A stretch of DNA of 64,000 nt from Kiritimatiellia bacterium. GTDB taxonomy: Bacteria; Verrucomicrobiota; Kiritimatiellia; RFP12; UBA1067. The stretch's first letter is position 1. Each line of letters opens with the position of its first letter. Below are positions 3,602 to 60,333 of this stretch, in pieces. The stretch covers positions 22,534-86,533 of the forward strand of contig JAFTCL010000048.1 of NCBI GenBank assembly GCA_017454745.1. Reading direction: 5' to 3'. A program made the position numbers and the translations under genes. A model generated the notes under the pieces. The model had not been told where the DNA came from and made no database searches. It saw nothing but the letters and a program-made list of their open reading frames with translations.

Positions 3602-3807
3602 TTGTTCAATGGATTGAGTAAATTTGCTCATTGCGATTGGCAAATGACGAATAGAGGAGTGATCCCAGATTCCTCACTTGGGGGTTTCACGCAAACCCTT
3701 GCCGCTCAGCGTCGCTGTGCCTCTGCGTGAGATAGAAATCCTTGTCTAGAAAGCGTAACCGAGGAATTAAGGTTAATGTCCGCAGAAAGACGACGGAAGG
3801 AGAAACC

Positions 3808-5151
3808 ATGAAAACACCAACGACAAAACGCATGCTCGCCGCAGTCGCGGCGGTAACCTGCATCGTAACAGCCGCCCGCGCCGGCAGCGTTCCGGACCAA
3901 TGCCTGGACGCCTGCACGGGCGGCGAGGGCGCCATCCACGTTCAGGGCTGGGCCTATGACCCCGACGCCTCGTCGCAGTCCATCAATGTCCACGTCTATT
4001 TCTATGCCGACTCGGGCTGCACGATCCAGTACGGGGACGTCCGCATACTCACGGCCAACGTGTCGAGGCCCGACGTGAACCAGGCGAAGGGAATCACGGG
4101 CGACCACGGCTTTGCCGCCGACATCCCCGTCTCCAACGCCGGAGACTACTGGGTCAAGCTCTTCGCCATCGACGCCACCGGCGACGGCAATCCGCAGATC
4201 GGCTAGACGAGAAGCGTGACCGTGACGGCGACCGGCTCGCCGTCCGGCGGCTCGTCGGCGGAATCCGGCTGCACCGTCAAGGTCACGAAGTTCCACCAGT
4301 CGTATCCCTACTCGGGCAGGGCGACGGTCGAATACATGGTCGGCGGGACGCTCCCCGCGAACGCCGTCGCGGAAATTATCCTCAATACCGACGACGCGAC
4401 CGCGACCTTCGTCCAGAGCAACGTCGTCGCGGGCGCGAATACGCACGTGATCGACTTCGCCTCGTCCTTCGGCGGCGCGATGCTGCTCACCAATGCCTCG
4501 TTTGTGGTGACGATCACTGGAGAACGGGCTCTCGGCGGCGTGCAACTTTGGGAGAACGGGCCCTACTGGGCGGAGTGCAACGTGGGTGCCACAAAGCCTG
4601 AAGAATACGGTTACTACTTCTGGTGGGGCGACACGGTGGGCTACAAGCGCGAGAACGACGCCTGGGTTGCAGCGGACGGCTCGACGTCCAGCTTCTCGTT
4701 CAACAGCGACAACACGCCCACCTACGGCAAGGACAACGCGACGCTTCTCTCGGAGGGCTGGATCGACTCGACGGGTAACCTCGTGGCGGCGCACGACGCG
4801 GCGACGGCGCACCTCGGCGCACCCTGGCGAATGCCGACGGACGCGGAGTTCTCCGCGCTCCTCGACAACTGCACCACCGAGTGGACGACGCGGAACGGCG
4901 TATCGGGGCAGCTCGTCACGGGCAAGGGCGCATACGCGGACAAGAGCATCTTCCTTCCTGCGGCCGGCTACGGCAACGACTCGCGCCTCTACGGCCTCGG
5001 CTCGTACGGCTTCTTCTGGTCCTCTACGCCGTATTCGGGCAATTCGAACTACGCGTGGAACCTCTACTTCCTTTCGGGCCACATCGACTGGAGCTACGGC
5101 AGCCGCTACGACGGGGTGTCCGTCCGGCCTGTGCGAGGATTTGCCCAATAG
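3808..5151 (+). pseudogene. Secreted FISUMP-domain (Fibrobacter succinogenes major paralogous domain) protein interrupted by an in-frame TAG at 4204-4206. This may be one gene carrying a nonsense codon or readthrough site, or two ORFs (3808-4206 and 4216-5151, the latter starting at GTG).
   Basis: The N-terminal part has a signal peptide (MKTPTTKRMLAAVAAVTCIVTAARA) and an RBS (GGAAGGAG). The C-terminal part (LWENGPYWAECNVGA...YGYYFWWGD...APWRMPTDAEF...YAWNLYF...GVSVRPV) is the FISUMP fold and lacks a signal peptide of its own. Both parts are in the same frame, separated only by TAG. Confidence 0.55.
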
Positions 5152-8611: not shown

Positions 8612-8830
8612 ATGGAAGAGAAAATTAAAGCCAAACTCGAAGAACTGCGCGGAATGCTCCAAGCCGACGGCGGCGATTTGGAACTGGTTTCCATCGAGGA
8701 CAAAGTGGTCACGCTCCAACTGCGCGGCGCCTGCGGCAACTGTCCCCACGCGACCATGACGCTGAAACAGGGCATCGAACGCATCCTCCGCGAAACGATC
8801 GACCCCGAAATCGTTGTTGAGCGCGCCTAA
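8612..8830 (+). CDS. NifU-like Fe-S cluster assembly domain protein (Nfu C-terminal domain type)
   Basis: Roughly 72 aa with the CxxC motif GACGNCPHATMTLK and the conserved LE.VRP.LQADGGD.ELV-type pattern. The start at MEEKIKAKL is preceded by an RBS (GGGAGAAAA). Confidence 0.65.
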   Translation: MEEKIKAKLEELRGMLQADGGDLELVSIEDKVVTLQLRGACGNCPHATMTLKQGIERILRETIDPEIVVERA

Positions 8831-8855
8831 TCGCGACACCTTTGGAGACCTGCGC

Positions 8856-10472
8856 ATGAAATTGCCGATTCTGCCGTTTCTGGTTTTTGCCGCCGGTATC
8901 GCGGCGGCGGCGCCGTCGTTTAAAGCAGAAAAACCCTATCCGGCGATAGGCCTGAAATTCAAGACCTTGAGCGGCGGCAATCCCGAACCGCTCAAACAGG
9001 CGCAAACGCACACTTACACCCGCACCGACAACCAAACCGGCGCCACCGACGAGCTGGAACTGTTCAGCGCCCGCGAACTGTGGTACGCCACGCAGCATCT
9101 CGGGCAGTGGCGCGACAAGGCGGGGAACCTGATGATTCTCGGGCGGGCCGACTACGCATTGCCAAAGGTACGCGTAACCGCCGGAACACACGTAAGCCGC
9201 GAAGATTTCGAACAGGCGGCGGCGGATAACAATCTGCGAATCGGACAAGTCGATATCACCGACAACCGGCTGCTTTCTTGGGTGGGGGATTTCGCCGACG
9301 CCAAACCCGGCGAACCGGAAAAGATCCGCTGTCCCTTCCGGATTCGCGATGCCGCATTCGTCCCCACCGACCATCCCCAGCAGGTTGCCTGCCTTTTCCG
9401 GATCAAATCGCAGCTTCCCGCCGCCGATGACTGGTATTGCCTGATTATCGAGATTGCCGACGGCACCCCGACCGCCAAGGTGCGCAAAGACATCGAAACC
9501 CAGTTCCTCGCCACCATCTCCGCCATTCCGCGCTCATCCACTACAACCCGCGCCGACAACAAGGAGCTGAAGACCTTTACTCCCGGAACGCGGACTCCGG
9601 AAAAGATCGCCGACCATCCCAGCCGCGACGCCGCTAAAAAAAGCATTGCCAACATGGCTGGCTGGTGGTACGCCGAAACCGCGGACTACATATTCCTCTC
9701 TGACGTTCGCAGTTCGCTCGGCAAAAATCTGGTTAAGACCTTCCAAACCATACTTCCCGACTACCGCAAGGCGCTCAAAAAGCTGGTACCCCCGTTTGTT
9801 GAGCAGACCGACGTGAACGTGGTGCGGATATTCGAGAACGAAGCCGACTACAAACGCCATGTCGGGCCTAAACACGAATTCAGCGACGGCATCTGGAATC
9901 CGGCGCTTCGCGAACTGGCAATCCTATCCTGCGGCAACAAAAAAGCCGAAGAGACCATGGACATCATGCGCCACGAAGGGTTCCACCAGTACCTCTTTTA
10001 CGCCGCCGATAAAATCATCGTCTCGACCTGGCTCAACGAGGGCTACGCCTGTTTCTGCGAAGGCGCGGTAATAAAGGGCGGACGGGTCTCGTTCCCGGAG
10101 ACCGGACGGGTTGACCAGCTGTTGCGCGAACTGCCCGCCGCCACCGCGTTGATCCCCAAACTGATAAAAACCAGCCACGAGGGTTTTTACGCCGGAAACG
10201 ACCAGCAGATCAGCTTGAAATACGCCACCGCGTGGGGAATTGTGTACTTTCTGTGCAAGGGGGTCCCCTCCAACCGCAAATACGAAGCATACGCCACGAT
10301 TTTGCCCGACTACTGGAAAACGCTAAAGGAAACCCGTGATTGCGAAAAGGCCAACGCGGCCGCGTTTGAGGGCGTGAGCATGGAGAAATTCCAAAAGGAT
10401 TTCTCCGAATTCTGGCAAAAAGGCCGCAACGCCGCCCGCAGGATCGACCCGCTGGCGGCGAACCCAAAATAA
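8856..10472 (+). CDS. Secreted putative zinc-metallopeptidase-like protein (HExxH motif; resembles DUF1570)
   Basis: Signal peptide MKLPILPFLVFAAGIAAAAP. HExxH appears as MRHEGFHQY, with NEGYACFCEG downstream. The RIFENEADY block is typical of DUF1570 proteins. Confidence 0.5.
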   Translation: MKLPILPFLVFAAGIAAAAPSFKAEKPYPAIGLKFKTLSGGNPEPLKQAQTHTYTRTDNQTGATDELELFSARELWYATQHLGQWRDKAGNLMILGRADYALPKVRVTAGTHVSREDFEQAAADNNLRIGQVDITDNRLLSWVGDFADAKPGEPEKIRCPFRIRDAAFVPTDHPQQVACLFRIKSQLPAADDWYCLIIEIADGTPTAKVRKDIETQFLATISAIPRSSTTTRADNKELKTFTPGTRTPEKIADHPSRDAAKKSIANMAGWWYAETADYIFLSDVRSSLGKNLVKTFQTILPDYRKALKKLVPPFVEQTDVNVVRIFENEADYKRHVGPKHEFSDGIWNPALRELAILSCGNKKAEETMDIMRHEGFHQYLFYAADKIIVSTWLNEGYACFCEGAVIKGGRVSFPETGRVDQLLRELPAATALIPKLIKTSHEGFYAGNDQQISLKYATAWGIVYFLCKGVPSNRKYEAYATILPDYWKTLKETRDCEKANAAAFEGVSMEKFQKDFSEFWQKGRNAARRIDPLAANPK

Positions 10473-13991: not shown

Positions 13992-14966
13992 ATGTCCGCC
14001 CGCCCAACCACCTTCGTCGCTTTAGTGCTGCTGGCCGCCGGAGCGGTCGCGCAGTCGGTAGGCGGCATTGGGGGTATGAGCGTGTCCGACGACCGGGTCC
14101 GACGCCGCTCCGTGCCCGACCCGGTTGCCGCCAGCGGGGAACTGCGGATGCGGAGTCTGCAAATTACCGTATCGCCGCCGCAAATGTACCTCAACGTGGG
14201 CACCGACCGGCGGTTCGGCCCCTACGCGCTTTCGGACGGCACGGAGATCGGCGTCGCCCAGCCGCCGTACAAACTAACCGCCGTGCGGGACGGCAGTTTT
14301 TCCGTGCGGGGGCCGGATCAAACGGTTTACGGCCCGTTCAGCAGCGCCGACGGCACCGCGATAACGATCGGCCGCCAGAGCGCCGTTGTGCTGCGGCCGA
14401 CCGTCGACCTCGCGGTGCGGTTGGAATGGAACGGCATGAAACGGCAGAAACCGGTCATCGGCGTCGCCGTCGCCAACCAGCCGCTTTATCAGGCGCTTTA
14501 CGAACTTCGGGACCACTTCGCGACGGTGATAAACCGCGTAAATTACGAAACCGCCGACCGGGAGATACAAGGCGTGCCGCGCCGCATCCACTACCCCAAC
14601 GGACGCAGCAACGCCGGGAACGTCGTGTCGGTTTCCAAGCGCGACAAGGAAAACTCCGAATGGCAGGCCGAACGCAGTTGCGTCAACGCGGTGGAAAGGC
14701 TTTTTAACCAACGTTTCCATATCAAGTCCTACGCGTTAACCGACCGTTTCACCAGCCACTTCCGGATGCCGGCGGGACGGTATCTGCTTTGCGCCATGCA
14801 GCGTTACAGCGACCCAAGGCAATCATCCACCTTCGCCGGATCAAAAACCGCCATCTGGTGGACGGAATTCACTTTCGACGGACAAAGCGGACTAAGCCTG
14901 GAGTTGACGCCTGAAAACGCCGTCAGCTGGAGAGAAATTTTCCCGTTCCAAACAATCAGCGAATAA
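13992..14966 (+). CDS. Secreted hypothetical protein
   Basis: Signal peptide MSARPTTFVALVLLAAGAVAQS. 324 aa with no recognisable motifs. Lies directly downstream of 11655-13988 on the same strand. Confidence 0.5.
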   Translation: MSARPTTFVALVLLAAGAVAQSVGGIGGMSVSDDRVRRRSVPDPVAASGELRMRSLQITVSPPQMYLNVGTDRRFGPYALSDGTEIGVAQPPYKLTAVRDGSFSVRGPDQTVYGPFSSADGTAITIGRQSAVVLRPTVDLAVRLEWNGMKRQKPVIGVAVANQPLYQALYELRDHFATVINRVNYETADREIQGVPRRIHYPNGRSNAGNVVSVSKRDKENSEWQAERSCVNAVERLFNQRFHIKSYALTDRFTSHFRMPAGRYLLCAMQRYSDPRQSSTFAGSKTAIWWTEFTFDGQSGLSLELTPENAVSWREIFPFQTISE

Positions 14967-15169
14967 CCGCGCCCGGATTGACTATTGCCCCGGTTTTTGC
15001 TAAACTGTTTTTGATTTTCTTTGGCGGTGTATGCCCTTGAAAGAAAAGCGAGGACGGAATGACGGCGAGAGCAAGATATTTCGCATCAATTGCGGCGATG
15101 TAAAGGTGGCAAACGTGACCTTTGCGGGAGTCATTGTTTGTCGTTTCCATGCCTGAGGAAGGAGACTTT

Positions 15170-16285
15170 ATGAATGAGTTGAAGTATGTCGATCCCAAAG
15201 CCGATCTGACTTTCAAGAAGGTTTTTGGCGAACACCCGGACTTGATAACAAGTCTGTTGAATGCGTTGCTGCCCTTGCCGGAGGATGGCCGGATTGTCTC
15301 TATCGAATATCTTACCCCGGAGATTGTTCCCGATGATCCGCTTCACAAGGACAGCATTGTGGATGTCCGCTGCAAGGATCAGAAAGACCGCCAGTTCATT
15401 GTAGAAATGCAGATGATATGGTCTCCGGACTACAACCAGCGCGCTCTTTTCAACGCCGCAAAGGCGTACTCCCGCGAACTTCCGGCGGGCGGGGACTACT
15501 GCAACCTCAAAACAGTCTATTCGCTGAATCTTTTGAACGACAACCTTGATCTTGATGTTCCGCAGTGGTATCACCTTTATCGTCTGGAACACCACAAGGT
15601 CAAAGGCGAGACGATAGACGGAATCCAGCTTGTTTTCGTTGAACTCAAGAAGTTCGAGCCGCACACCTGGCCGGAGCGAAAGATGGCGGTGCTGTGGCTT
15701 CGTTTCCTTACGGAGATTGACGGCAACACGCGCAAGGCCCCGCCGGAACTGGAGGCGAATCCGGAAGTCAGGAAAGCCCTGGAAATGGTGGAGGTTGCCG
15801 CCCTCACCCCGGAAGAGCGGGCGAGGTACGACGGATTTCAGGACTGGCTCTGCCGCGAAACGCGGCGCGCCAACGCCGAGAAAAGACTAAAGGACGCCGA
15901 GAAAGATCTGGAAAGACTTCCCGAGCTTAAGGCGGAGCTTGACGCGGCAAAGTCCGAGCTTGACACGGCAAAGTCCGAGCTTGACACGGCAAAGTCCGAG
16001 CTTGACACGGCAAAGTCCGAACTTGACACGGCAAAGTCCGAGCTTGACACGGCGAAGTTCGAGCTTGACACGGCGAAGTTCGAGCTTGACACGGCAAAGT
16101 CCGAGCGCGACGCGGCAAAGTCCGAACTTGACGCGGCAAAGTCCGAGCGCGACGCGGCGGTAGAAAAGATGCGGCAAGACAAACTCCGGACCGCCCGGAA
16201 CCTAAAGGCCATGAATCTTGCCAACGAGCAAATCGCGGCGGCAACCGGTCTTACCGCCGCTGAAATCGACGCGCTCCAACCTTAA
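15170..16285 (+). CDS. Rpn-family recombination-promoting nuclease / putative transposase (PD-(D/E)XK; YhgA-like), with an internal heptad-repeat coiled-coil insertion
   Basis: Rpn-like N-terminus KYVDPKADLTFKKVFGEHPDLITSLLNALL. Rpn-type C-terminal tail LANEQIAAATGLTAAEIDALQP. Strong RBS (GAGGAAGGAGAC) before the ATG at 15170. Confidence 0.7.
   Translation: MNELKYVDPKADLTFKKVFGEHPDLITSLLNALLPLPEDGRIVSIEYLTPEIVPDDPLHKDSIVDVRCKDQKDRQFIVEMQMIWSPDYNQRALFNAAKAYSRELPAGGDYCNLKTVYSLNLLNDNLDLDVPQWYHLYRLEHHKVKGETIDGIQLVFVELKKFEPHTWPERKMAVLWLRFLTEIDGNTRKAPPELEANPEVRKALEMVEVAALTPEERARYDGFQDWLCRETRRANAEKRLKDAEKDLERLPELKAELDAAKSELDTAKSELDTAKSELDTAKSELDTAKSELDTAKFELDTAKFELDTAKSERDAAKSELDAAKSERDAAVEKMRQDKLRTARNLKAMNLANEQIAAATGLTAAEIDALQP
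15927..16166 (+). repeat. About 11 tandem copies of a 21-bp unit (GCAAAGTCCGAGCTTGACACG) encoding [SELDTAK]n inside the Rpn gene
   Basis: Near-perfect in-frame 21-bp tandem repeats. The last copies are degenerate (TTC/CGC variants). Confidence 0.9.
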
Positions 16286-16331: not shown

Positions 16332-17669
16332 TCAGCCGTTCTCCTCAAGCTGCTCTGCGGGCGCCTTCCACATCATCAGCACCACCAGCCCTCCAGCTAT
16401 GGCCGCCGCGAGAATCGTGGCGTATGCGGCATCCCAGCCCCAGTTCTGCGCCATCCATCCAAATCCGATGCCGCTGATGATTGTGCTCAAGTAGCCGAGT
16501 ACCCCAAGGATGCCGCCTGCGGTAGCCGCTGCTCGCGGAGTGGCCTGCTGCGTTGACGATATCCCAAGCAACGCCTGCGGGCCGTACAGGAAAAAGCCGA
16601 TCATCGCGAACGGAACCAGTTTCGCCGCAAACGGCGCGGACACGGGCACAGCCCAGAACCCCGCGACCGATAGCGCAATGCCGAGGAAGCAGAACACGCA
16701 GGTACGGTGCGTGCGGCTGCCGAATATGTGATCGCTTGCCCAGCCCGCCGCGAGCATGCCCAGATTGCCGCCGACAATCTCAAACGTGAAACAAAGCGTC
16801 GTTGCCGCCGCGAGGGTCAGACCCTTCGACTCCATGAGCAGCGTCGGGCCCCAGTCGAGGGCGGCAAAGCGCACCGTGTTCACGAAGAAGTTGGAGATGG
16901 CAAGAATCCAGATGTACGGATTCCTCAGCACGTGGTCGCGCACAAACGCCTTGTGGGCCTCGCTCTCCTCCTTCGTCCTGACAACCGTCACCTTGCGTCC
17001 GGGAATAGGCGGCAACCCGACATCATCGGGCGAGTCCTTCATCGCGAAAAGCAGCCCCAACGAACCGGCCATCGCAATGCCGGCCGGCACGAGGAAACAT
17101 AGCCGCCAGGCGTTGAAGTGCGGGATGATCCACCATCCGAGGAGCGCGAACACGCCGCCCGCGCCGATTGAGTGCGAAAGATTCCAGATGGCCTGCTTCG
17201 TGGCGAGCTGGTTGGGCGGAAACCATAGCGGCAGCGTCTTCACGCACGGTCCCACGCCCATGCCCTGGAAATAGCTGTTTACGATGTAGAGGATGCCCAT
17301 CGTCCAGACGAGCGCCGACGCTGCGGAGACGCCCTTGGCAACCGCCGGCGCCGCGCCGCCCAGCGCGATGAAATCGCTCACGCCGAAAACGACGTTAACG
17401 ACGGAGCAGACGAAGAGGCCGAAGGACATCACCTTGCGCGCGCTGTTGCGGTCGGTGATGATGCCGTTCGTGAAGCGCGCCAGACCGTAGAGCATCCCGC
17501 CCGCCGTGAGGAACGCGCCAAGCTGCACCTTGCTGATGCCGATTCCGCCCAGAAGCGGCATCGCCAGCGAGAAGTTTTTGCGGATGATGTAGTAGAGGGC
17601 GTAACCGCCCATCGTCACCAGCAGCGTCTCCCACTGCCACCAGCCGAGCGATCTTTTAGTCTTAGCCAT
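16332..17669 (-). CDS. MFS transporter of the organophosphate:Pi antiporter family (GlpT/UhpT-like)
   Basis: 445 aa with 12 predicted transmembrane segments. N-terminal region (YYIIRKNFSLAMPLL...YGLARFTNGIITDR) matches the GlpT/UhpT family. Confidence 0.65.
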   Translation of the reverse strand: MAKTKRSLGWWQWETLLVTMGGYALYYIIRKNFSLAMPLLGGIGISKVQLGAFLTAGGMLYGLARFTNGIITDRNSARKVMSFGLFVCSVVNVVFGVSDFIALGGAAPAVAKGVSAASALVWTMGILYIVNSYFQGMGVGPCVKTLPLWFPPNQLATKQAIWNLSHSIGAGGVFALLGWWIIPHFNAWRLCFLVPAGIAMAGSLGLLFAMKDSPDDVGLPPIPGRKVTVVRTKEESEAHKAFVRDHVLRNPYIWILAISNFFVNTVRFAALDWGPTLLMESKGLTLAAATTLCFTFEIVGGNLGMLAAGWASDHIFGSRTHRTCVFCFLGIALSVAGFWAVPVSAPFAAKLVPFAMIGFFLYGPQALLGISSTQQATPRAAATAGGILGVLGYLSTIISGIGFGWMAQNWGWDAAYATILAAAIAGGLVVLMMWKAPAEQLEENG

Positions 17670-17681
17670 GTTTCCGGTTCC

Positions 17682-19034
17682 TTACTTCACTTCCCACACG
17701 CCGCCGGGGCCGAACAGGCGGTCGAGGAGTGCGGGCATGAGACCAAGGCGCTGCACCAAGTCCGCCCCGAAATACCTCGCGCGCATATAGGGAATACCGG
17801 CGTACGTCTCGCGGAAGCGCGCGCGGGAGACGCCGATCTCCTCCGGCTCCGCCGGCGCACCCACCTTGCGCAGATTCTCCTTAACTTCCGCGAAAGGCAT
17901 GAGCTGCGCGCGGATCTTCGCGGCGAGGTCGCCCCAGTTGTCGCGGATCGCCTTCAACTCCTTGCGGAGCGAGTCCTTGGACGGAAACTTCTTCGCGTAT
18001 TCGAGTTCCGCGCGCGTGACGTGCGCGGGACGGCCCGGAAAAACGGACGGGAAAGTTGCCTTCACGGCATCGAACGACGGCCACCACGCGGCGACCTTTT
18101 CCTCCACATCCATTTTCGAGAGGTCGTGCTCCAGTAGGAATTCGAGCGTGGCGGTGGAGACGAGAGTGCCGATGCCCACCTTGAAACCGTGCGACACGAA
18201 TCTACCGTTGAAGGAGAGGTCCTCCATGTCCCAATAGTGCGACACCTGATGCTCGGTGCCGCTCGCCGGGCGCGAGGAACCCATCGCCTGCATGGCAAAC
18301 GCGCTCATCACGAGGCCTTCGCAGAGTTTGCGCACTTCGCGCTCGTCTCCGGAAGCGCAGCCGGAGGGATTGGAGAGCGTGTCGCGCAGGGGATCTTGTA
18401 CGAGCCTCCACGCAAGGGGGTGTATGGCTTCGGCCCCGACGAGGTCGGCGATTATCCAGTCCGCCCCGGCGGGGATCTTCGCGATGAGGTCCGCGTATCC
18501 GCTCGCGGTCATCTCCTTCGGCGCGGCCGCCGCGACGGCGCTGTCCACGATGCAACCGAGCGGCGCCTTGCAGTCCATCGTCTGTTTCATGCCGTCTTTC
18601 GTAATGGCGGCGCCGTATGCGGTGTAGCCGTCCATCGAGGCGGCAGTGCCCACGACCATGTACCGAAGACCCAGTTCGCCGCAGGCGCGTTTGGTGAGAT
18701 CATTGATGACGCCGGAGCCGACGGCCACGGGAATCGCGCCGTCTGCGGCGGCTATAGCCCCGCGCACTTCCTCCACCTTCCCGTAGGTGGCGTGAAAGTC
18801 GGAACCGTCGGGGTTGATGACATACTCGGTCACCTCGCGTCCGGCCGCCTTCAGGATTTCGTTCACGCGGATTCCGGCCACAGCCCGCGTATTCGGGTCG
18901 TCTATCACGATAGCCTTGCCCGCCTCCGGGAACAGCTCGCCGAACATACGCGCGACGGCCTCGGTAGCCCCCGGACCGACCTCGCACGCCTTCGTATCGG
19001 TGGTCTTGGTCAACGCCTCTTCTATCATCGTCAT
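17682..19034 (-). CDS. Iron-containing alcohol dehydrogenase / dehydroquinate synthase-fold enzyme resembling sn-glycerol-1-phosphate dehydrogenase (AraM/EgsA family)
   Basis: Glycine-rich NAD-binding segment VAVGSGVINDLTK. G1PDH-like overall length and architecture. The ATG at 19034 has an AGAGGA RBS, whereas the track start at 19082 is a TTG. Confidence 0.5.
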   Translation of the reverse strand: MTMIEEALTKTTDTKACEVGPGATEAVARMFGELFPEAGKAIVIDDPNTRAVAGIRVNEILKAAGREVTEYVINPDGSDFHATYGKVEEVRGAIAAADGAIPVAVGSGVINDLTKRACGELGLRYMVVGTAASMDGYTAYGAAITKDGMKQTMDCKAPLGCIVDSAVAAAAPKEMTASGYADLIAKIPAGADWIIADLVGAEAIHPLAWRLVQDPLRDTLSNPSGCASGDEREVRKLCEGLVMSAFAMQAMGSSRPASGTEHQVSHYWDMEDLSFNGRFVSHGFKVGIGTLVSTATLEFLLEHDLSKMDVEEKVAAWWPSFDAVKATFPSVFPGRPAHVTRAELEYAKKFPSKDSLRKELKAIRDNWGDLAAKIRAQLMPFAEVKENLRKVGAPAEPEEIGVSRARFRETYAGIPYMRARYFGADLVQRLGLMPALLDRLFGPGGVWEVK

Positions 19035-19140
19035 TTTGCAGTCCTCTTGTGTTTGCCTAAAAATCTCCGAACTTGAAACCAATATATATTTTTAGCACAA
19101 CACGGCCGCTTGAGTCAACAATGACTTGCAAAACACGGCG

Positions 19141-19170
19141 GACAGGGTGGGAGATAGGGAGGGACGCCCC
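19141..19170 (+). repeat. Second copy of the REP-like G-rich repeat (GGACAGGGTGGGAGATAGGGAGGGACGCCC)
   Basis: Matches 3372-3416. Lies in an AT-rich leader upstream of the giant gene. Confidence 0.55.
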
Positions 19171-19296
19171 CACGCGAAAAATACGGGGCGAATCGGTTTC
19201 GGCTTGACGGGTAAGGCATACAAATGTTATCTTCATAATATTTTTCTTTTTTCTGTTGCACGTTAAGTTAACGATTGTCAGGAAAGGTTATTAATC

Positions 19297-22200
19297 ATGA
19301 TGAACGGTTTTTTGCGTTTTGTGCAAACGGGATGTCTAGTTTTCACATCTCTAATTCTCCTGATGGCGGACAACGCAAATGGGTTGACCGCCTACTCTTA
19401 TGTCCAGAAGGGGCTGGCCGCCTGTTGGGACGGTATCGACAACGCAGGGTCCGGGTCGCACGATTCTTCCGTCCGCACATGGAAAGATTTGACCGGAAAC
19501 GGCTACGACGGCATATTATCGGATATCGTTTCGTGGGAGGACAATTGCTGGTCCACCGCAGTGAGCGGCCGCCCCGTTAAGCTTCCGAATTCGTTCTCCT
19601 ATCTCACCGCCGCACGGACTTTCACCGTGGATTGCGCATTCAGCCCGTCCAGGGCCGAGAAGAGCGCTTCGGCTCGCGAAACGGTTTTCGGACAGTACGA
19701 CGGCAGCTACAACGGCACATTCAACATCGAACACAACCACAACAACCATCCCGCCGGATGCCTTCGTTTTTACATGAATAAAGGGCAGATCGACAAATAC
19801 AGCACGGGTGTGGTTCTGGCCAACCAGAACGCGACGGTCGCGCTGACGGTCACGCCGGCAAAGCAGGTTCTATACATCGACGGCGCGAGCGACACCGTCT
19901 CCACAACCAGTCTGTCCACATTGTACTCCAGCAAAGACACTTACATCGGTGGCGAAACGTCTCGAGAAAGCTTTGGGTTCCGGGGGCGCTACTACGGTTG
20001 CCGCTTCTACGACCGCGCGTTGACTGCGGAAGAGGTGGCGGTGAACCACGCCGTTGACGCCATCCGTTACTGGGGCGCCTCCCCAAACGATTTCACGCTC
20101 TCCGGCGGATACTGCTTTGACGCAGAAGGCGAGTTGCTGATCGACGTAACCGCCAATGTGACCGACGGAGGCGGCAAAGTCTGCGTCGGCACGGGTGGCG
20201 ACGCCTCCGATGCCATCTCCGCAACCATCAACCAGAACGGCACGGAATCCGTCACCTTCACGGCCGTGCCCGACGAGGGCTACGAATTCGCCACATGGGT
20301 GCTGGAGGACGGTGCGATGCTGGACGAAGGCAGCAGTCTCACCGACCCGACAATCAGCATATACGCAAAATGGCCGCTCGCCGTCACGGCGACGTTCCGC
20401 GAGAAAGGCAAGCTGACCGCCTACTCGTACGTGCAGAAGGGGCTGGTCGCCTGCTGGGACGGCATCGACAACGCAGGCACCGGCGAACATGACGAGGAAA
20501 CCCGCGTTTGGAAAGACCTGACCGGAAACGGCTATAACGGTACGCTCGGCAGCGACGTTACCTGGGCGGAGAATGGTTGGCAGAACGAAGCAAACGAAAA
20601 GCCCGTCTCGCTTGGCTACGGATTCTCCACCGTCACCGAACCGTGCAACTTTACAATCGATTTCACCGTCACGCCGTCACGCGCCCCCTGCCGCGAAATC
20701 TTTTTCGGCCAGTTCGGCTGGGACTACGGCTCAATCAACCTGGAACGGAAGGCAAACGGACGGCTGCGCTGCTATTACAACTATGATGAAGTCGATTTCG
20801 AAAGCACACAGGCGATTGCCGCCAACGAAACGGCGAGCTTCACCGTCACCACCACGCCCGGCAAACAGGCCGTGTGGAAGAACGGCGTGAAAGATGTAGA
20901 GCAGACCGACAAGGCGATCAGCGCCATGTCCGGCGGCAAGCCCACCTATATCGGCGCGGACGGGACAGGAAACAGCAACCGGAAGAGCTTCAACTTCCAC
21001 GGCACCTACCACGGCTGCCGCGTATATGACCGCGTACTGACCGACGCCGAAATCGCCGTAAACCACGCGGTCGACGCCATCCGCTACCGTGGGGCGTCCG
21101 CCGGCTCGTTCACACTCTCCGGCGGTTATTCCTTCAACAATTCGGGCAACTTGTTAATCGACCTGACCGCGACGGCCTCGGCCGGCGGCAAGGTCTGCTC
21201 CGGAACGGCGGACGTGGCGGCGGCTACCGCCGTCGCCACCATCAGCCAGGACGGAACCGTTTCCGCCGCCTTCACCGCCGTGCCGGACAATGGCTACGAA
21301 TTCGTAGCGTGGGACGTGGAAAATGGCGGCACGATCATCGGAGGTTCGACGTCCGACGCGACGATCAACATCTCCGCCCGGTGGCCGCTCGTTCTGACCG
21401 CAGTCTTTCGTCCGGCCCGAGCGGCATTCCCCGCGACAACGGTCGCAGACTACGTGAAAGACGGGCTGGTGATGTGGTTCGACGGCGTGGACAACGCGGG
21501 CGCAGGTCGGCACGACGGTGCGGCGGCGGCGTGGGCCGACCTCTCCGGCAACGGCAACGACGCCGTTGCGGTGGGGCCGGGCCTGGGATGGGCGGACAAC
21601 TCCTGCACCAACGCCATCGACGGCAAGCAGACGGGCGAAGCGGGCCTGTTCAGGCTGAACGGCGCCGTGGCGCCGGTTATCGCCAACCGGACCTTCACGC
21701 TGGAAATGGCCATTCGCCCCGGCTTCGTCAAAAACCGCAAAGTGCTCTTTGGCTCGTACGACGGCGCTAGCGGGTTCAACCTGGAAGAGAACGATTCGGG
21801 AATGTTCCGCGTCTTCTACAACAACACGCCGAACGTCGTGACCACCGTGCCGATGGTGAAGGACGAGGAAGCCGTATTCTCCGTTGTCAGCACGGCGGAC
21901 GGGGTTGCCGTCTATAAGAACGGCGTTCCGGTCTATCGCTACGAAGGGGCGATCGACGCCAAAGGCACGATTGCCGCGCTTGAAGATTCCGTCTATTATC
22001 TGGGCGGAGAGCGGCAGCGCGAAGGCTTCACGTACCGCGGCGCCATCTATTCTTTCCGGCTGTACAGCCGCGCCCTGACCTCGGCAGAGGTGTTGCGCAA
22101 CACGCGGCTCGACCAGCAGCGGCTTCTGGCGAATACGACGCTCTGGTCGGACGCGACGGGCGGATCGTGGATGGATAGCGCCTCATGGAGCGGAGGACTG

Positions 22201-24021
22201 CCCAACACGCTGGCACCGGCAATCGCCACGCTGGCCGGGGCGGACGTGCGGATGGGCTTGGCGCAGACGGCCCCGAACACCGCCAACGTCACGCTGGCCA
22301 ATCCGGACGGCACCTCCGTGCTGACGCTTGCAAGCGGCGCGACGCTTCCGGTGCCGGACAACTCCCTGGCCATCGGCGGCGGCGGCGAATTGCGCGTGGA
22401 AACGGGCGGCACACTCGCGCTGGACGTCACCGGTAACAACCCGACCCCGCGCCTGACCGTGGCAGACGGCGGCAAACTTACCGTTGACGGCGGCACCGTG
22501 AAGTTGACGAAATCTCCCGTCTCCATCAACGTTTTCGGCAGCGAAGGCCGTACCGGCACGCTGGAAATCGTTTCCGGTCGAATGGAAACCACAGTCAGCA
22601 ACACCGGACAGGACGGCGTGGCCGTGCTGAAGGGCGGACTCCTGCGAATGACCGGGGGAAATCTCACGCTTAACCGCACTGGGAGCTATAACAACGGCGG
22701 CAATCTTGTGGATGACGGCGGAGCGGTAGACCTTTCCGGAGACGCGGCTCTGATTGCGCACAAGACCGGAATCACCATCGGTTCCGGCACGTTCCGCATG
22801 GCCGATGCCTCCCACATCGACTTCCTTACGGACACGGGCAAGGATGACACTGTCTATAGAGTTCTATTGCAGCCGGGCGTTGGGCGGGAAACGGTCATGA
22901 CGGTCGACGATTCCGCAACGATCACCCCCGATCCGCTTTCCGGCCAGATGCAGTTCTTCGTCGGCTACCAGAACGCAGGATCGCGCACCATCCTGAACTG
23001 GAATTCGACCCAAACGCTGAAAGCTTTGCGTACGTTTGCCGTCGGTTTTGTCAAAGGATACGGCGAACTGAATATATCGCGGGGACAGATCATCGGCGGA
23101 TACAACGGATTCCGCGTCGCGCAGAACTACGCAAATCCGTCCGCCGACGCATGCGTTACGGGTGTGGTGAACGTAATCGGCGGCAGCGTGCGTAACATAG
23201 ACACCGAAAACGACTCCTCGACGTTCCAAGGGCTGATCATCGGTTCTGGCGGATGCGTAAAGATCGCCAACCCCGGCTATTTCTGGGGCACGCTGAACCT
23301 GTACGACGGCGGCGCGGTGACGAACTCCAGCGAATACTTCGGCATCGGCATCGGTTACGCGGAGGGCGTCCTGAACCAACACGGCGGCGAGGTAATCCAC
23401 AACAACAGCTCCAATAACGAATTCGTGATCGGGGCGTGGGGCGGCAAAGGCTCAATGGTCATGGATGGCGGCAGGGCGTGGTCGAAACGCGACGTCTATG
23501 TGGGCGGCGCCACAACCAACAACCTGTACTACAAGCGCTGGAAACTCTACACCCAATGCCCGGTGGACAACCACTGCGCCACCGGACTCCTGCGCGTGGC
23601 GGCGGGCAGATTCGACACGGCGGGCTCCATCTGGGTCAGCCAGGACGGACAGGGGACATTGGAAATCGGCCCCGCCGGACAGGTCTCCGCGAACAACGTC
23701 ATCCTGACCAACACGGTCGCGGAGCTGACCGGCACCGTTGACCTCGCCGCAAAACTCGCCTTCGTTCTGGACGAGGACGGCGCCGGGCTGCTTACCGTGA
23801 CCAACGCGCTGACCATCGGCCAGGGCGTGACCATGGAGGTGGATGCCACCGAAAGGAAAGGGCGGGGCGGAAACATCCCCCTCATCCGCTTTGGGGAGAG
23901 CGAGGGCGAGTTCAGCGCCATCACCGTCAAAGGCGGCGGCACGGTCAAAAAGTTGACCGTTGACGGGATGTCGGGTTACTGGTACCAATTCAGCCCCGGT
24001 ACCATCATCACCATCCTATAG
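19297..24021 (+). CDS. Giant secreted surface protein: three tandem LamG-like (concanavalin A-like, Laminin_G_3) modules, followed by a beta-helix / autotransporter-associated-like repeat region
   Basis: Signal-like N-terminus. The LamG signature DLTGNGYDG / DLTGNGYNG / DLSGNGNDA appears three times, each with a downstream RFYDRALTAEEVAVNHAVDAIRY-type block. The modules recur at DNA level with ~1026-bp periodicity (19381, 20407, 21433). The C-terminal third is rich in G/T/N beta-strand repeats. Confidence 0.7.
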   Translation: MMNGFLRFVQTGCLVFTSLILLMADNANGLTAYSYVQKGLAACWDGIDNAGSGSHDSSVRTWKDLTGNGYDGILSDIVSWEDNCWSTAVSGRPVKLPNSFSYLTAARTFTVDCAFSPSRAEKSASARETVFGQYDGSYNGTFNIEHNHNNHPAGCLRFYMNKGQIDKYSTGVVLANQNATVALTVTPAKQVLYIDGASDTVSTTSLSTLYSSKDTYIGGETSRESFGFRGRYYGCRFYDRALTAEEVAVNHAVDAIRYWGASPNDFTLSGGYCFDAEGELLIDVTANVTDGGGKVCVGTGGDASDAISATINQNGTESVTFTAVPDEGYEFATWVLEDGAMLDEGSSLTDPTISIYAKWPLAVTATFREKGKLTAYSYVQKGLVACWDGIDNAGTGEHDEETRVWKDLTGNGYNGTLGSDVTWAENGWQNEANEKPVSLGYGFSTVTEPCNFTIDFTVTPSRAPCREIFFGQFGWDYGSINLERKANGRLRCYYNYDEVDFESTQAIAANETASFTVTTTPGKQAVWKNGVKDVEQTDKAISAMSGGKPTYIGADGTGNSNRKSFNFHGTYHGCRVYDRVLTDAEIAVNHAVDAIRYRGASAGSFTLSGGYSFNNSGNLLIDLTATASAGGKVCSGTADVAAATAVATISQDGTVSAAFTAVPDNGYEFVAWDVENGGTIIGGSTSDATINISARWPLVLTAVFRPARAAFPATTVADYVKDGLVMWFDGVDNAGAGRHDGAAAAWADLSGNGNDAVAVGPGLGWADNSCTNAIDGKQTGEAGLFRLNGAVAPVIANRTFTLEMAIRPGFVKNRKVLFGSYDGASGFNLEENDSGMFRVFYNNTPNVVTTVPMVKDEEAVFSVVSTADGVAVYKNGVPVYRYEGAIDAKGTIAALEDSVYYLGGERQREGFTYRGAIYSFRLYSRALTSAEVLRNTRLDQQRLLANTTLWSDATGGSWMDSASWSGGLPNTLAPAIATLAGADVRMGLAQTAPNTANVTLANPDGTSVLTLASGATLPVPDNSLAIGGGGELRVETGGTLALDVTGNNPTPRLTVADGGKLTVDGGTVKLTKSPVSINVFGSEGRTGTLEIVSGRMETTVSNTGQDGVAVLKGGLLRMTGGNLTLNRTGSYNNGGNLVDDGGAVDLSGDAALIAHKTGITIGSGTFRMADASHIDFLTDTGKDDTVYRVLLQPGVGRETVMTVDDSATITPDPLSGQMQFFVGYQNAGSRTILNWNSTQTLKALRTFAVGFVKGYGELNISRGQIIGGYNGFRVAQNYANPSADACVTGVVNVIGGSVRNIDTENDSSTFQGLIIGSGGCVKIANPGYFWGTLNLYDGGAVTNSSEYFGIGIGYAEGVLNQHGGEVIHNNSSNNEFVIGAWGGKGSMVMDGGRAWSKRDVYVGGATTNNLYYKRWKLYTQCPVDNHCATGLLRVAAGRFDTAGSIWVSQDGQGTLEIGPAGQVSANNVILTNTVAELTGTVDLAAKLAFVLDEDGAGLLTVTNALTIGQGVTMEVDATERKGRGGNIPLIRFGESEGEFSAITVKGGGTVKKLTVDGMSGYWYQFSPGTIITIL

Positions 24022-46051: not shown

Positions 46052-47356
46052 CTATCCGCGGGTTACCTGACTAATCACCGACTCCACGGTCATCGATTCG
46101 TCCGCCGCCCGCACAAAGCTGAACTTGAACGCCTCACCGCCCGGCGGCACGTCCAGCACCACGTGTTTCGGCTCGTACAGCGTTTCCGGGATATCTTTGA
46201 TCCAAGCTTTCCCGGCGTCTTCCTTCCGGCGTTCCTTGGTGAACACGCCCGGACATAGCAAACGCGGCTCCGGGTAAAGGTTGCGGTCCGCTAACCGCTC
46301 CATCGTGTCGGCGGTCATGTGCAGCTGATCCCACATGCAGGCGACGTAAACCTGTCCTTTTAGCGCTTTTACCAGTCCGGGGAACATCGAGTGGTGGCCG
46401 TGGTGATTGACCTTGACCACATTCGCCGTGCCGCAGGCTTCGGCCATCAGGTCCTCAATCTGCACCGCCGTCCCGTCCGCCTTTTTAATGCGGTCGGAAA
46501 AGTCCCCGGCGGTGTAGAAACGGAATTTTCCGTAGTTGAAGACCATCCCCAGCGACATTCCGTTTTCATTAAGTGCTTTCGGGTGGTTGCGCTCGATCAG
46601 GTCTTTGTACAAGTCTTTTATCGTGCCGTCCGGCAGCATGATTCTGCCATTGGCGCAAAGCGGACGGATACTGAACCCGTCGGTTTTTTCATGCAGCGGA
46701 TTCAGCTGGGCGGAACCTTTCTCCAACCGGAATTTTTCGACCTTTGATCCGCGCCGGATCATCTCTTGGTAAACTTCCTTGAGGTTGGCGCACATGTGGC
46801 TGTCGTCATTGTCCAGCTTGACGATCGGGTCGTCGTAGGTCGGGTACGCGCGGTCTATCGCCTTGCCGATATCCAGAAAGTCGATTGCCTGCCCCAACCC
46901 GGATTTGTAATATTTCCCGTTTTCCGACAGTCCCGCATGGTAGGAACGCGACCCTCCGTGGTCGGAGTGGTAGTGCGAGAGCATGAAGTAATCGACCTTG
47001 CGCCCGTTGGGGTTTACCCGGGTTACGTACCGGGAAATCCATTCGCCCGCGTGGCGCGACATATCCGGCAGGATCGGTATTTGCTTTTCCCCGCGCATGT
47101 GCGCCGGATGGTCCCCGACATCCAGCAGCAGCGTGGTGCCGTCGGGATAGATCATAAACATCGATTCCGCCACCCCGGTGTAAATGAAATGCACTTGGAA
47201 GTGGCCTTTTTCCCATCGTCCCAGCGGTTTGCCGACGGCGGGATCCGCCTCGCCCTCGGCGAATGCCTTCATGAAATCCGCCAATACTGCGGTTACTGTC
47301 GCTGCTACCGAATGTTTGACAAAAGCCCTGCGCCGCATAAATGCCTCCCTTTTCAT
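46052..47356 (-). CDS. Tat-secreted MBL-fold metallo-hydrolase
   Basis: Tat-like MRRRAFVKHSVAATV and the HxHxDH motif LSHYHSDHGG. Overlaps the upstream cdd by 4 nt, suggesting an operon. Confidence 0.6.
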   Translation of the reverse strand: MKREAFMRRRAFVKHSVAATVTAVLADFMKAFAEGEADPAVGKPLGRWEKGHFQVHFIYTGVAESMFMIYPDGTTLLLDVGDHPAHMRGEKQIPILPDMSRHAGEWISRYVTRVNPNGRKVDYFMLSHYHSDHGGSRSYHAGLSENGKYYKSGLGQAIDFLDIGKAIDRAYPTYDDPIVKLDNDDSHMCANLKEVYQEMIRRGSKVEKFRLEKGSAQLNPLHEKTDGFSIRPLCANGRIMLPDGTIKDLYKDLIERNHPKALNENGMSLGMVFNYGKFRFYTAGDFSDRIKKADGTAVQIEDLMAEACGTANVVKVNHHGHHSMFPGLVKALKGQVYVACMWDQLHMTADTMERLADRNLYPEPRLLCPGVFTKERRKEDAGKAWIKDIPETLYEPKHVVLDVPPGGEAFKFSFVRAADESMTVESVISQVTRG

Positions 47357-58715: not shown

Positions 58716-59349
58716 GGTGATTAAAGTCGCTTTGGTCGAGGACGATCTGGGTATCCGCGAGACCCTTGCGGAGCTGCTTGAGGTTTCGGAGGGATTTTCC
58801 TTTTGCGGTTCCTTCGCGGACGGCGAATCCGCTTTGGAGCAGATACCGAAACTGAACGCGGACATCGTGCTGGTGGATATCAACCTGCCGGGCATATCCG
58901 GCATCGATGTCATCATGACGCTTCATGCGGAGTGCCCGGGTCTCCAGTTCCTTGTCCTGACGGTCTATGAGGATAGCGACCGGATTTTCCGCGCCCTCGC
59001 CGCCGGGGCCGGCGGATACCTGCTCAAGCGCGAGGCGCCCAGTAAGTTGCTGGAATCGATCACGGACATCAAGCACGGCGGTGCGCCCATGTCGGCGTCG
59101 ATCGCGCGCCAGGTTGTCCAGTCGTTCCACAAGATGGGAACGGTCAAGGAGCCGTCGGAGAACCTCTCGTCGCGGGAAGAGGAGATTTTGAAGATGCTGG
59201 TGGAGGGGGACCTCTATAAGGAAATCGCGGACAAACTCGGCATCCATCTGGAAACGGTTAAAACGTACATCAAGCGGATCTATGCGAAACTGCATGTCCG
59301 TTCGCGGACCGAGGCGGTCGTGAAACGGTTGCGGCGGGAAAACGATTGA
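58699..59349 (+). CDS. Response regulator of the NarL/FixJ family (REC + LuxR-type HTH)
   Basis: Receiver residues VEDD and VLVDINLPG. C-terminal HTH: LSSREEEILKMLVEGDLYKEIADKLGIHLETVKTYIKRIY. Overlaps the kinase gene by ~17 nt. Confidence 0.8.
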   Translation: MAMTDEVIKVALVEDDLGIRETLAELLEVSEGFSFCGSFADGESALEQIPKLNADIVLVDINLPGISGIDVIMTLHAECPGLQFLVLTVYEDSDRIFRALAAGAGGYLLKREAPSKLLESITDIKHGGAPMSASIARQVVQSFHKMGTVKEPSENLSSREEEILKMLVEGDLYKEIADKLGIHLETVKTYIKRIYAKLHVRSRTEAVVKRLRREND

Positions 59350-59371
59350 TGGCGGAAAGGATTCTCAAAAG

Positions 59372-60322
59372 GTGAAGGCTGTTGTTTACGGATGTCTGAC
59401 GGTGCTCGCGATTCTCCTTTCGGGTTGTCGGGAGAACACGCCGGTCGAGCCGGTTAACGGGATTGTGGCGGTTTCGCTGGTGACGGACACGAATCCCCAT
59501 TTTTTGAAGATCGCCGAGGCGATCGAGCGCGATGCGCGGCGATACGGTTACCAGGTCGAAGTCGATTCCTGCGAGTTTAATGTGGACCGGCAGATCGAGC
59601 AAGTGAGACGGTTCATCACCTTGGGCGTGAAGGCGATGGTCCTGACGCCCTGCGACGCCAAGAAGATCGCGCCCGCCGTCCGGGCGGCCAATGAGGCGGG
59701 GATACCTGTCTTCACGGCCGACACGGCCTGTTCCGCGGAGGGTGTGCATATTACCGCGCATGTCGCGACGGACAATCGCGGCGGCGGGACACAGATCGCC
59801 CACGCGACGATCGAGACGTTGGGGGAGAAAGGCGGAACGGTCGGCTTGATCAACCATTCCCCGCTTGAGGCGTGCGAGCAACGGGTCAAGAGTTTCCTCG
59901 AAGTGCTGGCGCGCCACAACGAGTCCCACACCAACGCGCAGATCAAGGTGCTCTTCTGCGAACCCTGTGGCGCGAACCGGAAAGGGGGCGCGGCGGCCGC
60001 CGAAAAGATCATCCGAAAGCCCGTCCTTCCCGACGTCATCTTCGCCGTCAACGATCCCTCCGCCGCAGGGGCGTACTCGGTCCTGAAGAAACTCCCCCAA
60101 GAGAAGTGCCCCAAGATCATCGCCTTTGACGGTTCCAAAGAGGGTTGCCGGGCCGTGGACGAGGGCCATTTCCTGGCGACGGCCATCCAGTATCCGGAAC
60201 GCATCGGCGCTGAGGTCATGCGGGCGATCGTGATGAATGCCCGCAATGACCCGATTCCCGCCGAAATCCTCATTCCGACCTCGCTCTACCAGCCCTCCCG
60301 GAAGCGGATCGGCGAACCGTAA
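59372..60322 (+). CDS. Lipoprotein sugar-binding protein of the periplasmic-binding-protein (LacI/RbsB-like) fold. It has no adjacent ABC permease or ATPase genes.
   Basis: Lipobox LAILLSGC. PBP type-I pattern (VDSCEFNVDRQIEQVRRFITLGVKAMVL, IIAFDGSKEG). Confidence 0.65.
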   Translation: MKAVVYGCLTVLAILLSGCRENTPVEPVNGIVAVSLVTDTNPHFLKIAEAIERDARRYGYQVEVDSCEFNVDRQIEQVRRFITLGVKAMVLTPCDAKKIAPAVRAANEAGIPVFTADTACSAEGVHITAHVATDNRGGGTQIAHATIETLGEKGGTVGLINHSPLEACEQRVKSFLEVLARHNESHTNAQIKVLFCEPCGANRKGGAAAAEKIIRKPVLPDVIFAVNDPSAAGAYSVLKKLPQEKCPKIIAFDGSKEGCRAVDEGHFLATAIQYPERIGAEVMRAIVMNARNDPIPAEILIPTSLYQPSRKRIGEP

Positions 60323-60333
60323 CGCCCGGACGG

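Follow-up and report, generated by a model that had tools for sequence, protein, structure and literature searches.

The two genes considered here lie on the minus strand of a 64,000-nt stretch of DNA (the window) from a Kiritimatiellia bacterium (assembly GCA_017454745.1, contig JAFTCL010000048.1, positions 22,534–86,533), with a G+C content of ∼60% throughout. One encodes a dehydrogenase related to AraM/EgsA, the sn-glycerol-1-phosphate (G1P) dehydrogenases (G1PDHs), and the other a major facilitator superfamily (MFS) transporter of the organophosphate:inorganic phosphate antiporter (OPA) family; together, the two make up an operon in this rumen bacterium of the Kiritimatiellae (Table 1). 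The original prediction had the two genes co-oriented and 12 nt apart, and this is exact: the dehydrogenase comes first, with its stop codon ending at 17682, the transporter ATG follows at 17669, and the short spacer implies that the two are co-transcribed. The dehydrogenase reading frame can be extended to a TTG at 19082; the true start is the ATG at 19034, as homologs open with MTMIEE or a close variant and a ribosome-binding site, AAGAGGA (19048–19042), is found 7 nt upstream. A scan for promoters and terminators gave nothing above thresholds on the minus strand of the operon; by eye, a weak sigma-70-like candidate can be picked out, TTGACT (19118–19113) and TAAAAA (19094–19089) with an 18-nt spacer, on which the scanner made no call. 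In a codon comparison with three orthologs of 83–92% protein identity (L001, L004, and L006), we counted 157–202 third-position changes vs. 18–58 at positions one and two, and this excess indicates that both genes are genuine and under purifying selection. A protein identical to the window dehydrogenase is already on record (P0001), and the identical protein in a Kiritimatiellae metagenome-assembled genome (MAG) carries the NCBI label "sn-glycerol-1-phosphate dehydrogenase."

Judging from sequence matches, the dehydrogenase belongs to the AraM/EgsA branch of G1PDHs and is neither a glycerol dehydrogenase (GldA) nor a 3-dehydroquinate synthase (DHQS). It matches the Pfam family Fe-ADH_2 (PF13685, E = 1e-29), and its best NCBIfam model is the equivalog of NAD(P)-dependent G1PDH, NF002022 (150.3 bits, residues 18–293), a model built on archaeal G1PDHs. 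The GldA model scored 27.9 bits against a cutoff of 336 and the glycolaldehyde-reductase model (NF053832) 22 bits against 550, while the NCBIfam search gave no match at all to DHQS. Among the sequences of the Protein Data Bank (PDB), the best phmmer match was 9h4x (E = 1e-37), which the Foldseek listing gives as the Ni2+-dependent G1PDH AraM of Bacillus subtilis. A family profile built from 14 diverse members and run against the PDB gave E-values of 3e-52 for AraM, 1e-22 for the Methanocaldococcus jannaschii G1PDH, 3e-20 for the P. calidifontis G1PDH, and 1e-15 for GldA, the GldA structures ranking under every G1PDH structure. The AlphaFold2 (AF2) model, built on the shallower of two alignments, has a pLDDT of 75.9 with residues 130–160 poor or disordered; its first-ranked Foldseek match is again AraM (9h4x, target-normalized TM score 0.67), ahead of the other listed structures with an Fe-ADH fold (GldA, 3ce9, and the archaeal G1PDH). 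We thus rejected an identity as GldA (28 bits vs. 150 for G1PDH; profile E of 1e-15 or weaker), as DHQS (zero NCBIfam match), and, after NCBIfam and PDB profile searches, as glycolaldehyde reductase on score (22 vs. 150 bits). The Fe-ADH/DHQS-like fold and the AraM/EgsA resemblance claimed in the original prediction were both borne out, the former by the Fe-ADH_2 and Foldseek matches and the latter by the best NCBIfam, PDB-profile, and Foldseek matches all being of G1PDH type; the profile comparison that it had proposed, of AraM/EgsA against GldA and DHQS, came out on the side of G1PDH.

The motifs of the protein include GTAASMDGYT, SGYADL, SSRPASGTEHQVSHYWDMEDL, and VSHGFKVGIGT. The predicted metal ligands are D182 (in SGYADL), H262 (TEHQ), and H282 (SHGF). 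In the alignments, they fall on the GD, EH, and HG positions of AraM and of the M. jannaschii and P. calidifontis G1PDHs, and they are invariant in the 14 members; from published structures of GldA and G1PDH, we take these Asp/His/His positions to be the ones that bind the metal. The nucleotide loop VAVGSGxxND and the xDG loop (GTAASMDGYT) have invariant counterparts in the family alignments, and SSRPASGTEH(262)QxSH and VSH(282)GFKVG are common to the dehydrogenase, AraM, and the archaeal enzymes. The superfamily fold and the metal-binding positions are shared with GldA and DHQS as well. The two motifs that mark the G1PDH branch and differ in GldA, (S/T)xDG and SRPxSGxEH, are present as SMDG and SSRPASGTEH and are invariant in the 14 members; the inspection of substrate-binding residues that had also been proposed at the outset was made at the level of these motifs.

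The closest characterized protein by both sequence and fold is B. subtilis AraM (EgsA/YseB, 9h4x). The two share the Fe-ADH_2 fold, the GSGxxxD nucleotide loop, the xDG loop, the Asp/His/His metal positions, and a stretch SRPASGxEHxxSHW running into an "ME" segment that is missing in the archaeal enzymes. On the other hand, the window protein has 450 aa vs. 394 in AraM, a difference explained by an insertion of ∼55 aa: its residues 305–375 match only ∼16 AraM residues, and the insertion is modeled as confident helices (pLDDT 84–97). The archaeal G1PDHs (M. jannaschii, 4rgq/4rfl; P. calidifontis, 5fb3) share the superfamily branch and the catalytic motifs; they are ∼100 aa shorter, more distant in the profile search (E of ∼1e-22 to 3e-20), and, as essential biosynthetic enzymes, coupled to GGGPS/DGGGPS. 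Among 1.84 billion cluster representatives, 3591 are related to the dehydrogenase at E ≤ 1e-3, of which 712 reach E ≤ 1e-30, and ∼700 clusters at 50% identity are nearer to it than AraM is. The best 150 representatives are mostly full length, 430–460 aa, and so many relatives of this size indicate that the long form is a large family of its own; we file the protein as a putative G1PDH of an AraM-like, long-form subfamily.

The product of the second gene matches MFS_1 (PF07690, E = 1e-29) and the OPA subfamily model TIGR00881 (279 bits, residues 21–415; NCBIfam) but stays below every equivalog cutoff, with 239 bits against 564 for UhpC, 236 against 633 for Escherichia coli GlpT, 170 against 750 for PgtP, and 131 against 497 for UhpT. 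It aligns with the GlpT structure 1pw4 over residues 12–432 (E = 3e-56), and in that alignment the equivalents of GlpT R45, R269, and H165 are kept in YIIRKNF, VRFAALDW, and WNLSHSIG, respectively; in published GlpT work, R45 and R269 are the substrate-binding Arg pair, and a role is given to H165 as well. An MFS organophosphate:Pi antiporter had been predicted, and the subfamily score, the GlpT alignment, and the three retained residues uphold this. The transporter is thus a member of the OPA family (GlpT/UhpT/PgtP, TC 2.A.1.4), its cargo not being assignable from sequence.

To see the operon in context, we used a sample of 51 loci from species-representative genomes, 50 of them with a usable match; almost all come from rumen or gut Kiritimatiellae MAGs, with dehydrogenases of 58–92% identity, joined by two Bacteroidales at ∼50%. 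Neighbors were mapped by clustering of open reading frames (ORFs), tblastn, and Pfam/NCBIfam searches, and the counts in Table 1 refer to genes that share the strand of the dehydrogenase. The window-type transporter (81–93% identical) is found directly downstream of the dehydrogenase in L001–L004, L006, L017, and L033, that is, in 7/7 loci having it; in two of these, the dehydrogenase is from another clade (70%) and the transporter is still 90% identical. The second OPA type, 36–40% identical to that of the window and more GlpT-like, occurs in 12–14 further loci. The pairing of dehydrogenase and OPA transporter exceeds chance. The flavoenzyme fusion listed in the table scored 311 bits with the NCBIfam model glycerol3P_ox_II, its best PDB match being the glycerophosphate oxidase GlpO of M. 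pneumoniae (E = 4e-51), and the glycerophosphodiesterases (GDPDs) of both kinds, found in 11 loci, have signal-peptide-like N-termini, as in E. coli GlpQ. In a neighbor-joining tree, a glycerol-phosphate context is seen in most dehydrogenase clades, the basal L038 included, and the window clade, with its own transporter type, is nested among clades with this context.

Table 1. Features of the operon in the window and genes recurring beside the dehydrogenase in related loci
Feature	Position in window or frequency	Strand	Basis or remark
AraM/EgsA-like dehydrogenase gene, long form, 450 aa	17682..19034	minus	Pfam, NCBIfam, PDB, Foldseek, orthologs
Dehydrogenase–transporter spacer, 12 nt, GGAACCGGAAAC	17670..17681	minus	Dehydrogenase stop codon to transporter ATG
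OPA-family MFS transporter gene, 445 aa	16332..17669	minus	Pfam, NCBIfam, GlpT alignment, orthologs
Divergent intergenic region upstream of operon, 262 nt	19035..19296	minus	Holds ribosome-binding site and weak promoter candidate
OPA transporter	21/50 loci	same as dehydrogenase, within ∼6 kb	Two types; immediately adjacent in ∼10
HAD-IIA (NagD/AraL-type) phosphatase	21/50 loci	same as dehydrogenase	Usually directly downstream
Flavoenzyme fusion, ∼830 aa: GlpO-type-2-like + BFD [2Fe-2S] + Pyr_redox_2	15/50 loci	same as dehydrogenase	
GDPD glycerophosphodiesterase	8/50 loci	same as dehydrogenase	Overlaps dehydrogenase start
GDPD–HAD fusion	3/50 loci	same as dehydrogenase	Directly downstream
AraC-type regulator with periplasmic-binding domain	3/50 loci	same as dehydrogenase	

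More distant relatives add gene fusions. Nine of the best 150 representatives exceed 550 aa, and four of these nine are GDPD–Fe-ADH_2 fusions that leave no room for a signal peptide, which points to a cytoplasmic location like that of UgpQ. Single cases join Fe-ADH_2 to DUF1667, to RpiB/LacAB, to a cytidylyltransferase-like domain (P0154), and to a SorC-type sugar-binding domain (the fusion representatives are P0123, P0131, P0144, P0161, P0153, P0130, P0154, and P0152), and in one long representative (P0210), the extra part has no recognizable domain. DUF1667 is a small subunit in operons of GlpO-type/Pyr_redox_2 glycerol-3-phosphate dehydrogenases. A metagenomic relative of 46% identity has a GDPD directly upstream, and another, 38% identical, sits beside genes for NanE, a MurQ-like protein, and a BadF-type kinase, with a divergent HAD-IIA gene; otherwise, the short metagenome contigs of the distant representatives added little context.

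The gene structure, the family memberships, the conserved catalytic motifs, and the conserved neighborhood are shown by these data, and the layout of the neighborhood brings to mind the glycerol-phosphate systems of E. coli. Like glpTQ and glpABC, the sister loci of the window operon combine a GDPD with a signal peptide, a GlpT-like antiporter, and a flavin enzyme oxidizing glycerol-3-phosphate (G3P); unlike them, they add an AraM-like dehydrogenase and a HAD-IIA phosphatase, and their flavoenzyme is the GlpO-type-2-like/BFD/Pyr_redox_2 fusion and not GlpABC. The window differs further in keeping the transporter and the AraM-like gene alone. Flavoenzymes of the GlpA/GlpD/GlpO type cannot use G1P. 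As the sister loci copy the glpTQ/glpABC logic, an enzyme of the G1PDH type would, most simply, serve there to oxidize the enantiomer that the flavoenzyme cannot take. We therefore give about an even chance to the reading that the operon imports glycerol phosphate and oxidizes the sn-1 enantiomer, in an NAD(P)+-linked reaction, to dihydroxyacetone phosphate (DHAP).

In such a scheme, glycerophosphodiesters would be cleaved to give glycerol phosphate outside the cytoplasm, with deacylated phosphatidylglycerol, fragments of lipoteichoic acid, and other glycerophosphate polymers as possible sources; the OPA antiporter would bring it in and Pi out, and the dehydrogenase would oxidize the sn-1 enantiomer to DHAP, which would enter glycolysis. 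A full sister locus, with its secreted GDPD, GlpO-like flavoenzyme, HAD-IIA phosphatase, and dehydrogenase, could handle both enantiomers, and the window would represent a reduced module of transporter and dehydrogenase. We infer the G1P substrate, the oxidative, catabolic direction, and the cargo of the transporter. G1P is plentiful in the rumen. Lipoteichoic acid is a polymer of sn-glycerol-1-phosphate, the head group of phosphatidylglycerol is the same compound, and GlpQ-type enzymes are strictly specific for the sn-3 form (PMC7086022). The original prediction had allowed for two alternatives, that a glycerol phosphate or sugar phosphate is taken up and converted or that G1P is made for unusual lipids or teichoic-like polymers; going by gene content, the context seems to favor the former, with a glycerol phosphate as the substrate.

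Several points weigh against a G1P-oxidizing scavenging operon. The dehydrogenase stays under the G1PDH equivalog cutoff (150 vs. 413 bits), which makes it a family relative of G1PDH but no certified equivalog; its identity with AraM is 33% over 263 aligned residues, and we found no characterized member of the long-form family. Thermodynamically, the oxidation of glycerol phosphate with NAD runs uphill, and biosynthesis is the accepted role of the characterized G1PDHs; GldA, however, has a catabolic function in spite of similar energetics. The proposed route does not explain the role of the co-occurring HAD phosphatase. Within the window, tblastn found no GDPD, GlpO-like, HAD, AraD, or AraC-type genes, and the counts from the related loci are not independent, coming as they do from phylogenetically related MAGs. 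The next conserved gene of the window clade is AraD, L-ribulose-5-phosphate 4-epimerase (349 bits vs. a cutoff of 257), a neighbor that points to pentose-phosphate rather than glycerol-phosphate metabolism; the RpiB fusion and the NanE/MurQ-like neighbors of distant relatives likewise represent other sugar-phosphate contexts. Finally, VNG_6270G of Halobacterium salinarum, an Fe-ADH_2 protein resembling G1PDH and called G1PDH in databases, is a glycolaldehyde reductase without G1PDH activity (PMC9700705), a precedent that cautions against relying on the annotation by name. The window protein differs from it in retaining the motifs of true G1PDHs.

The AraD neighbor, the other sugar-phosphate contexts, and the haloarchaeal reductase also feed an alternative in which the substrate is a different one, either a small aldehyde or polyol, phosphorylated or unphosphorylated (glycolaldehyde, lactaldehyde, or glycerol/dihydroxyacetone), or a by-product of pentose-phosphate metabolism, tied to AraD and the AraL-like phosphatase, with the OPA transporter carrying a sugar phosphate. 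The sub-threshold score for G1PDH fits it too, and AraD follows the window-type transporter in L003, L004, L006, and L033, where the window clade continues with AraD and glycoside hydrolase genes; in L004, AraD is followed by a glycoside hydrolase of ∼840 aa with MGH1-like and GH32N-like domains. In L033, from a phylum distant from that of Bacillus, AraD occurs together with an AraL-like HAD-IIA gene, placed upstream, and the AraM-like gene, repeating the AraD/AraL/AraM triad of the B. subtilis araABDLMNPQ-abfA operon, and in L017 the AraM-like gene has HAD-IIA upstream on a contig ending ∼1.4 kb past the transporter. The company of an AraL-like HAD-IIA gene and, in some loci, AraD is thus common to AraM and the window family; the difference is in the rest, the window family being paired with OPA, GDPD, and GlpO-like genes and AraM with an ABC arabinoside transporter. 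The recurrence of AraD/AraL/AraM across phyla is striking and could reflect a role tied to pentose-phosphate metabolism. The AraL of B. subtilis dephosphorylates sugar phosphates with low specificity; G3P is not hydrolyzed, and G1P lay outside the tested set (PMC3207120). A different substrate is nevertheless unlikely in our view: the glycolaldehyde-reductase model reached 22 bits where the G1PDH model reached 150, the SRPxSGxEH and xDG motifs of proven G1PDHs are invariant, AraM is itself encoded in the ara operon and yet a proven G1PDH, and most loci have glycerol-phosphate genes, not ara genes, alongside.

We consider it distinctly unlikely that the dehydrogenase runs in the opposite, biosynthetic direction and reduces DHAP to G1P for an archaeal-type ether lipid, heterochiral acyl lipids, or a surface polymer derived from CDP-glycerol, with the transporter supplying G3P or triose phosphate or being unrelated. 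The only characterized relatives, AraM and the archaeal EgsA, act biosynthetically, P0154 has a cytidylyltransferase-like domain as its fusion partner, and a GlpO-like enzyme and a G1PDH could in principle turn imported G3P into G1P via DHAP; moreover, PlsY and PlsC take G1P in vitro (PMC13400652). Against this, a search with B. subtilis PcrB (query sequence checked against 3vzx; phmmer, E ≤ 10) found no PcrB/GGGPS/HepGP-synthase homolog in the window and 54 loci, 617 kb in all, so no link of the window family to a PcrB-type prenyltransferase was seen, although pcrB is not next to araM in B. subtilis either. Lipid- or polymer-synthesis genes do not recur beside the dehydrogenase, whose recurrent partners (secreted GDPD, GlpT-like importer, AraC-type regulator, and phosphatase) are catabolic in type, and the GDPD fusions fit breakdown rather than synthesis. 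A variant of the same direction, to which we attach little credence, is a two-step glycerophosphate "epimerase" in which the GlpO-like flavoenzyme of the sister loci would convert imported G3P to DHAP and the dehydrogenase DHAP to G1P, destined for heterochiral membrane lipids or a G1P surface polymer; gut Kiritimatiellae would then hold a glycerol-phosphate pool of archaeal chirality, and ordinary bacteria would stand on both sides of the lipid divide with no GGGPS-type genes close by.

The HAD-IIA phosphatase, which the scavenging route leaves unexplained, would have a part in a redox or overflow valve. DHAP would be reduced to G1P and dephosphorylated by the phosphatase to glycerol, consuming NAD(P)H much like yeast Gpd/Gpp with the other enantiomer, and the transporter would balance phosphate. 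The adjacency of dehydrogenase and HAD-IIA is the commonest pairing, tied with OPA at 21/50, AraL–AraM is the same pairing in B. subtilis, and the HAD-IIA family includes G3P phosphatases (4i9f and 7po7). The window operon, however, has no HAD gene, an overflow pathway needs no importer, and the secreted GDPDs, the GDPD fusions, and the G3P-oxidizing flavoenzyme would be left unexplained; all this makes a valve very unlikely. That the two genes are unrelated and merely co-transcribed, as the unrelated flanks of the window (PDDEXK_2 nuclease, LamG giant protein, and citrate synthase) and the varying upstream neighbors of the closest loci might suggest, is barely credible given a window-type transporter directly downstream in 7/7 cases, even beside dehydrogenases of another clade, and a second OPA type accompanying the dehydrogenase in 12–14 more loci.

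Beyond the operon, nothing in the window belongs to glycerol-phosphate metabolism. The upstream neighbor of the operon is a divergent gene (19297–24021, plus strand), the 1574-aa product of which has three LamG modules; each module is ∼380 aa long and consists of a Laminin_G_3 and an InlB-B-repeat-like part, and the long C-terminal region has no Pfam match. The 3′ end of the operon faces a convergent gene (15122–16285, plus strand) for a nuclease of the PDDEXK_2 type (Rpn or "transposase_31"-like), in the C-terminal part of which a 21-nt unit is repeated 10.2 times in tandem (92% match, 15935–16148); the unit encodes the heptad ELDTAKS and gives the protein a coiled-coil-like tail. Pfam scans were extended to 29 further ORFs of the window and showed unrelated functions and no ether-lipid genes, the genes present including Acyl_transf_3, DUF5060, citrate synthase, MscS, hexokinase, GyrA, GH106, GH32, FabH, and others. 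Five ORFs of 324–552 aa lack any Pfam match (8814–10472, 13992–14966, 3706–5148, 46052–47356, and 59270–60364), and the Rfam and tRNA scans of the 64 kb were empty.

The related loci show a good deal of variety beyond the genes in Table 1. The upstream neighbors of the closest orthologs are not conserved and were left out of the context analysis; they include GH78-like, GH39-like, radical SAM, PgpA-domain, and amidase genes; the PgpA domain is C-terminal in a 386-aa protein two genes upstream of the dehydrogenase (L004, 2944–4104, plus strand) and was seen in this locus only. In L018, L024, L025, and L036, proteins of 1260–1400 aa with PATR repeats, resembling autotransporter passengers, are encoded just upstream of the GDPD–dehydrogenase pair. 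In L039–L043, with dehydrogenases of ∼59% identity, the gene order is always peptide-chain release factor 2, a 369-aa phosphotransferase of the APH type (aminoglycoside/choline-kinase-like), and the dehydrogenase, and glycerol-phosphate genes are absent from the locus. In L029 and L032 (and L005), the genes ahead of the dehydrogenase encode a poly-ferredoxin-like protein and an aldo/keto reductase that has a 4Fe-4S dicluster domain at its C terminus, and L032 also carries a membrane protein of the Wzy_C/O-antigen-ligase type. One locus (L047, CAVJWR010000067.1) is filed under Limosilactobacillus gorillae and has a 72%-identical dehydrogenase beside a GlpO-like fusion and an AraC-type regulator, as is typical of the Kiritimatiellae loci; the contig was probably mis-binned. 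Three MAGs hold two paralogous dehydrogenase loci each, in different locus types (UBA3841, L006/L027; RGIG2266, L015/L022; RUG14632, L014/L023), which suggests sub-functionalization of the copies.

Of 44 bacterial phyla, 14, Verrucomicrobia included, were already known to have EgsA/AraM homologs (PMC5059525), and with this survey and the existing annotation, the bare finding of such a gene is not new. What is new is the distinct long form, its setting in a glp-like scavenging locus together with the GDPD fusions, and the association of AraD, AraL, and AraM across phyla; our literature search found no paper tying Kiritimatiellae to G1P metabolism. To our knowledge, it has never been explained why the arabinose operon of B. 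subtilis should contain araL and araM, and the co-occurrence of AraL-like and AraD genes so far from Bacillus suggests that there is a real functional link behind it.

Overall, bacterial AraM/EgsA homologs are commonly taken, as in surveys of the "lipid divide," as a sign of the capacity for lipids of archaeal chirality, while a large, uncharacterized long-form branch of them sits in a locus resembling a system for scavenging glycerophosphodiesters. The finding would be routine should the enzyme act as an aldehyde reductase or as a biosynthetic G1PDH of the ordinary kind. If, on the other hand, imported G1P is oxidized, the operon would provide the first dedicated catabolic route, as far as we have found, for the "wrong" enantiomer of glycerophosphate, one that is abundant in lipoteichoic acid and the head groups of phosphatidylglycerol and left untouched by GlpQ and GlpD-type enzymes, and it would caution against taking every G1PDH homolog as a marker of lipid biosynthesis.

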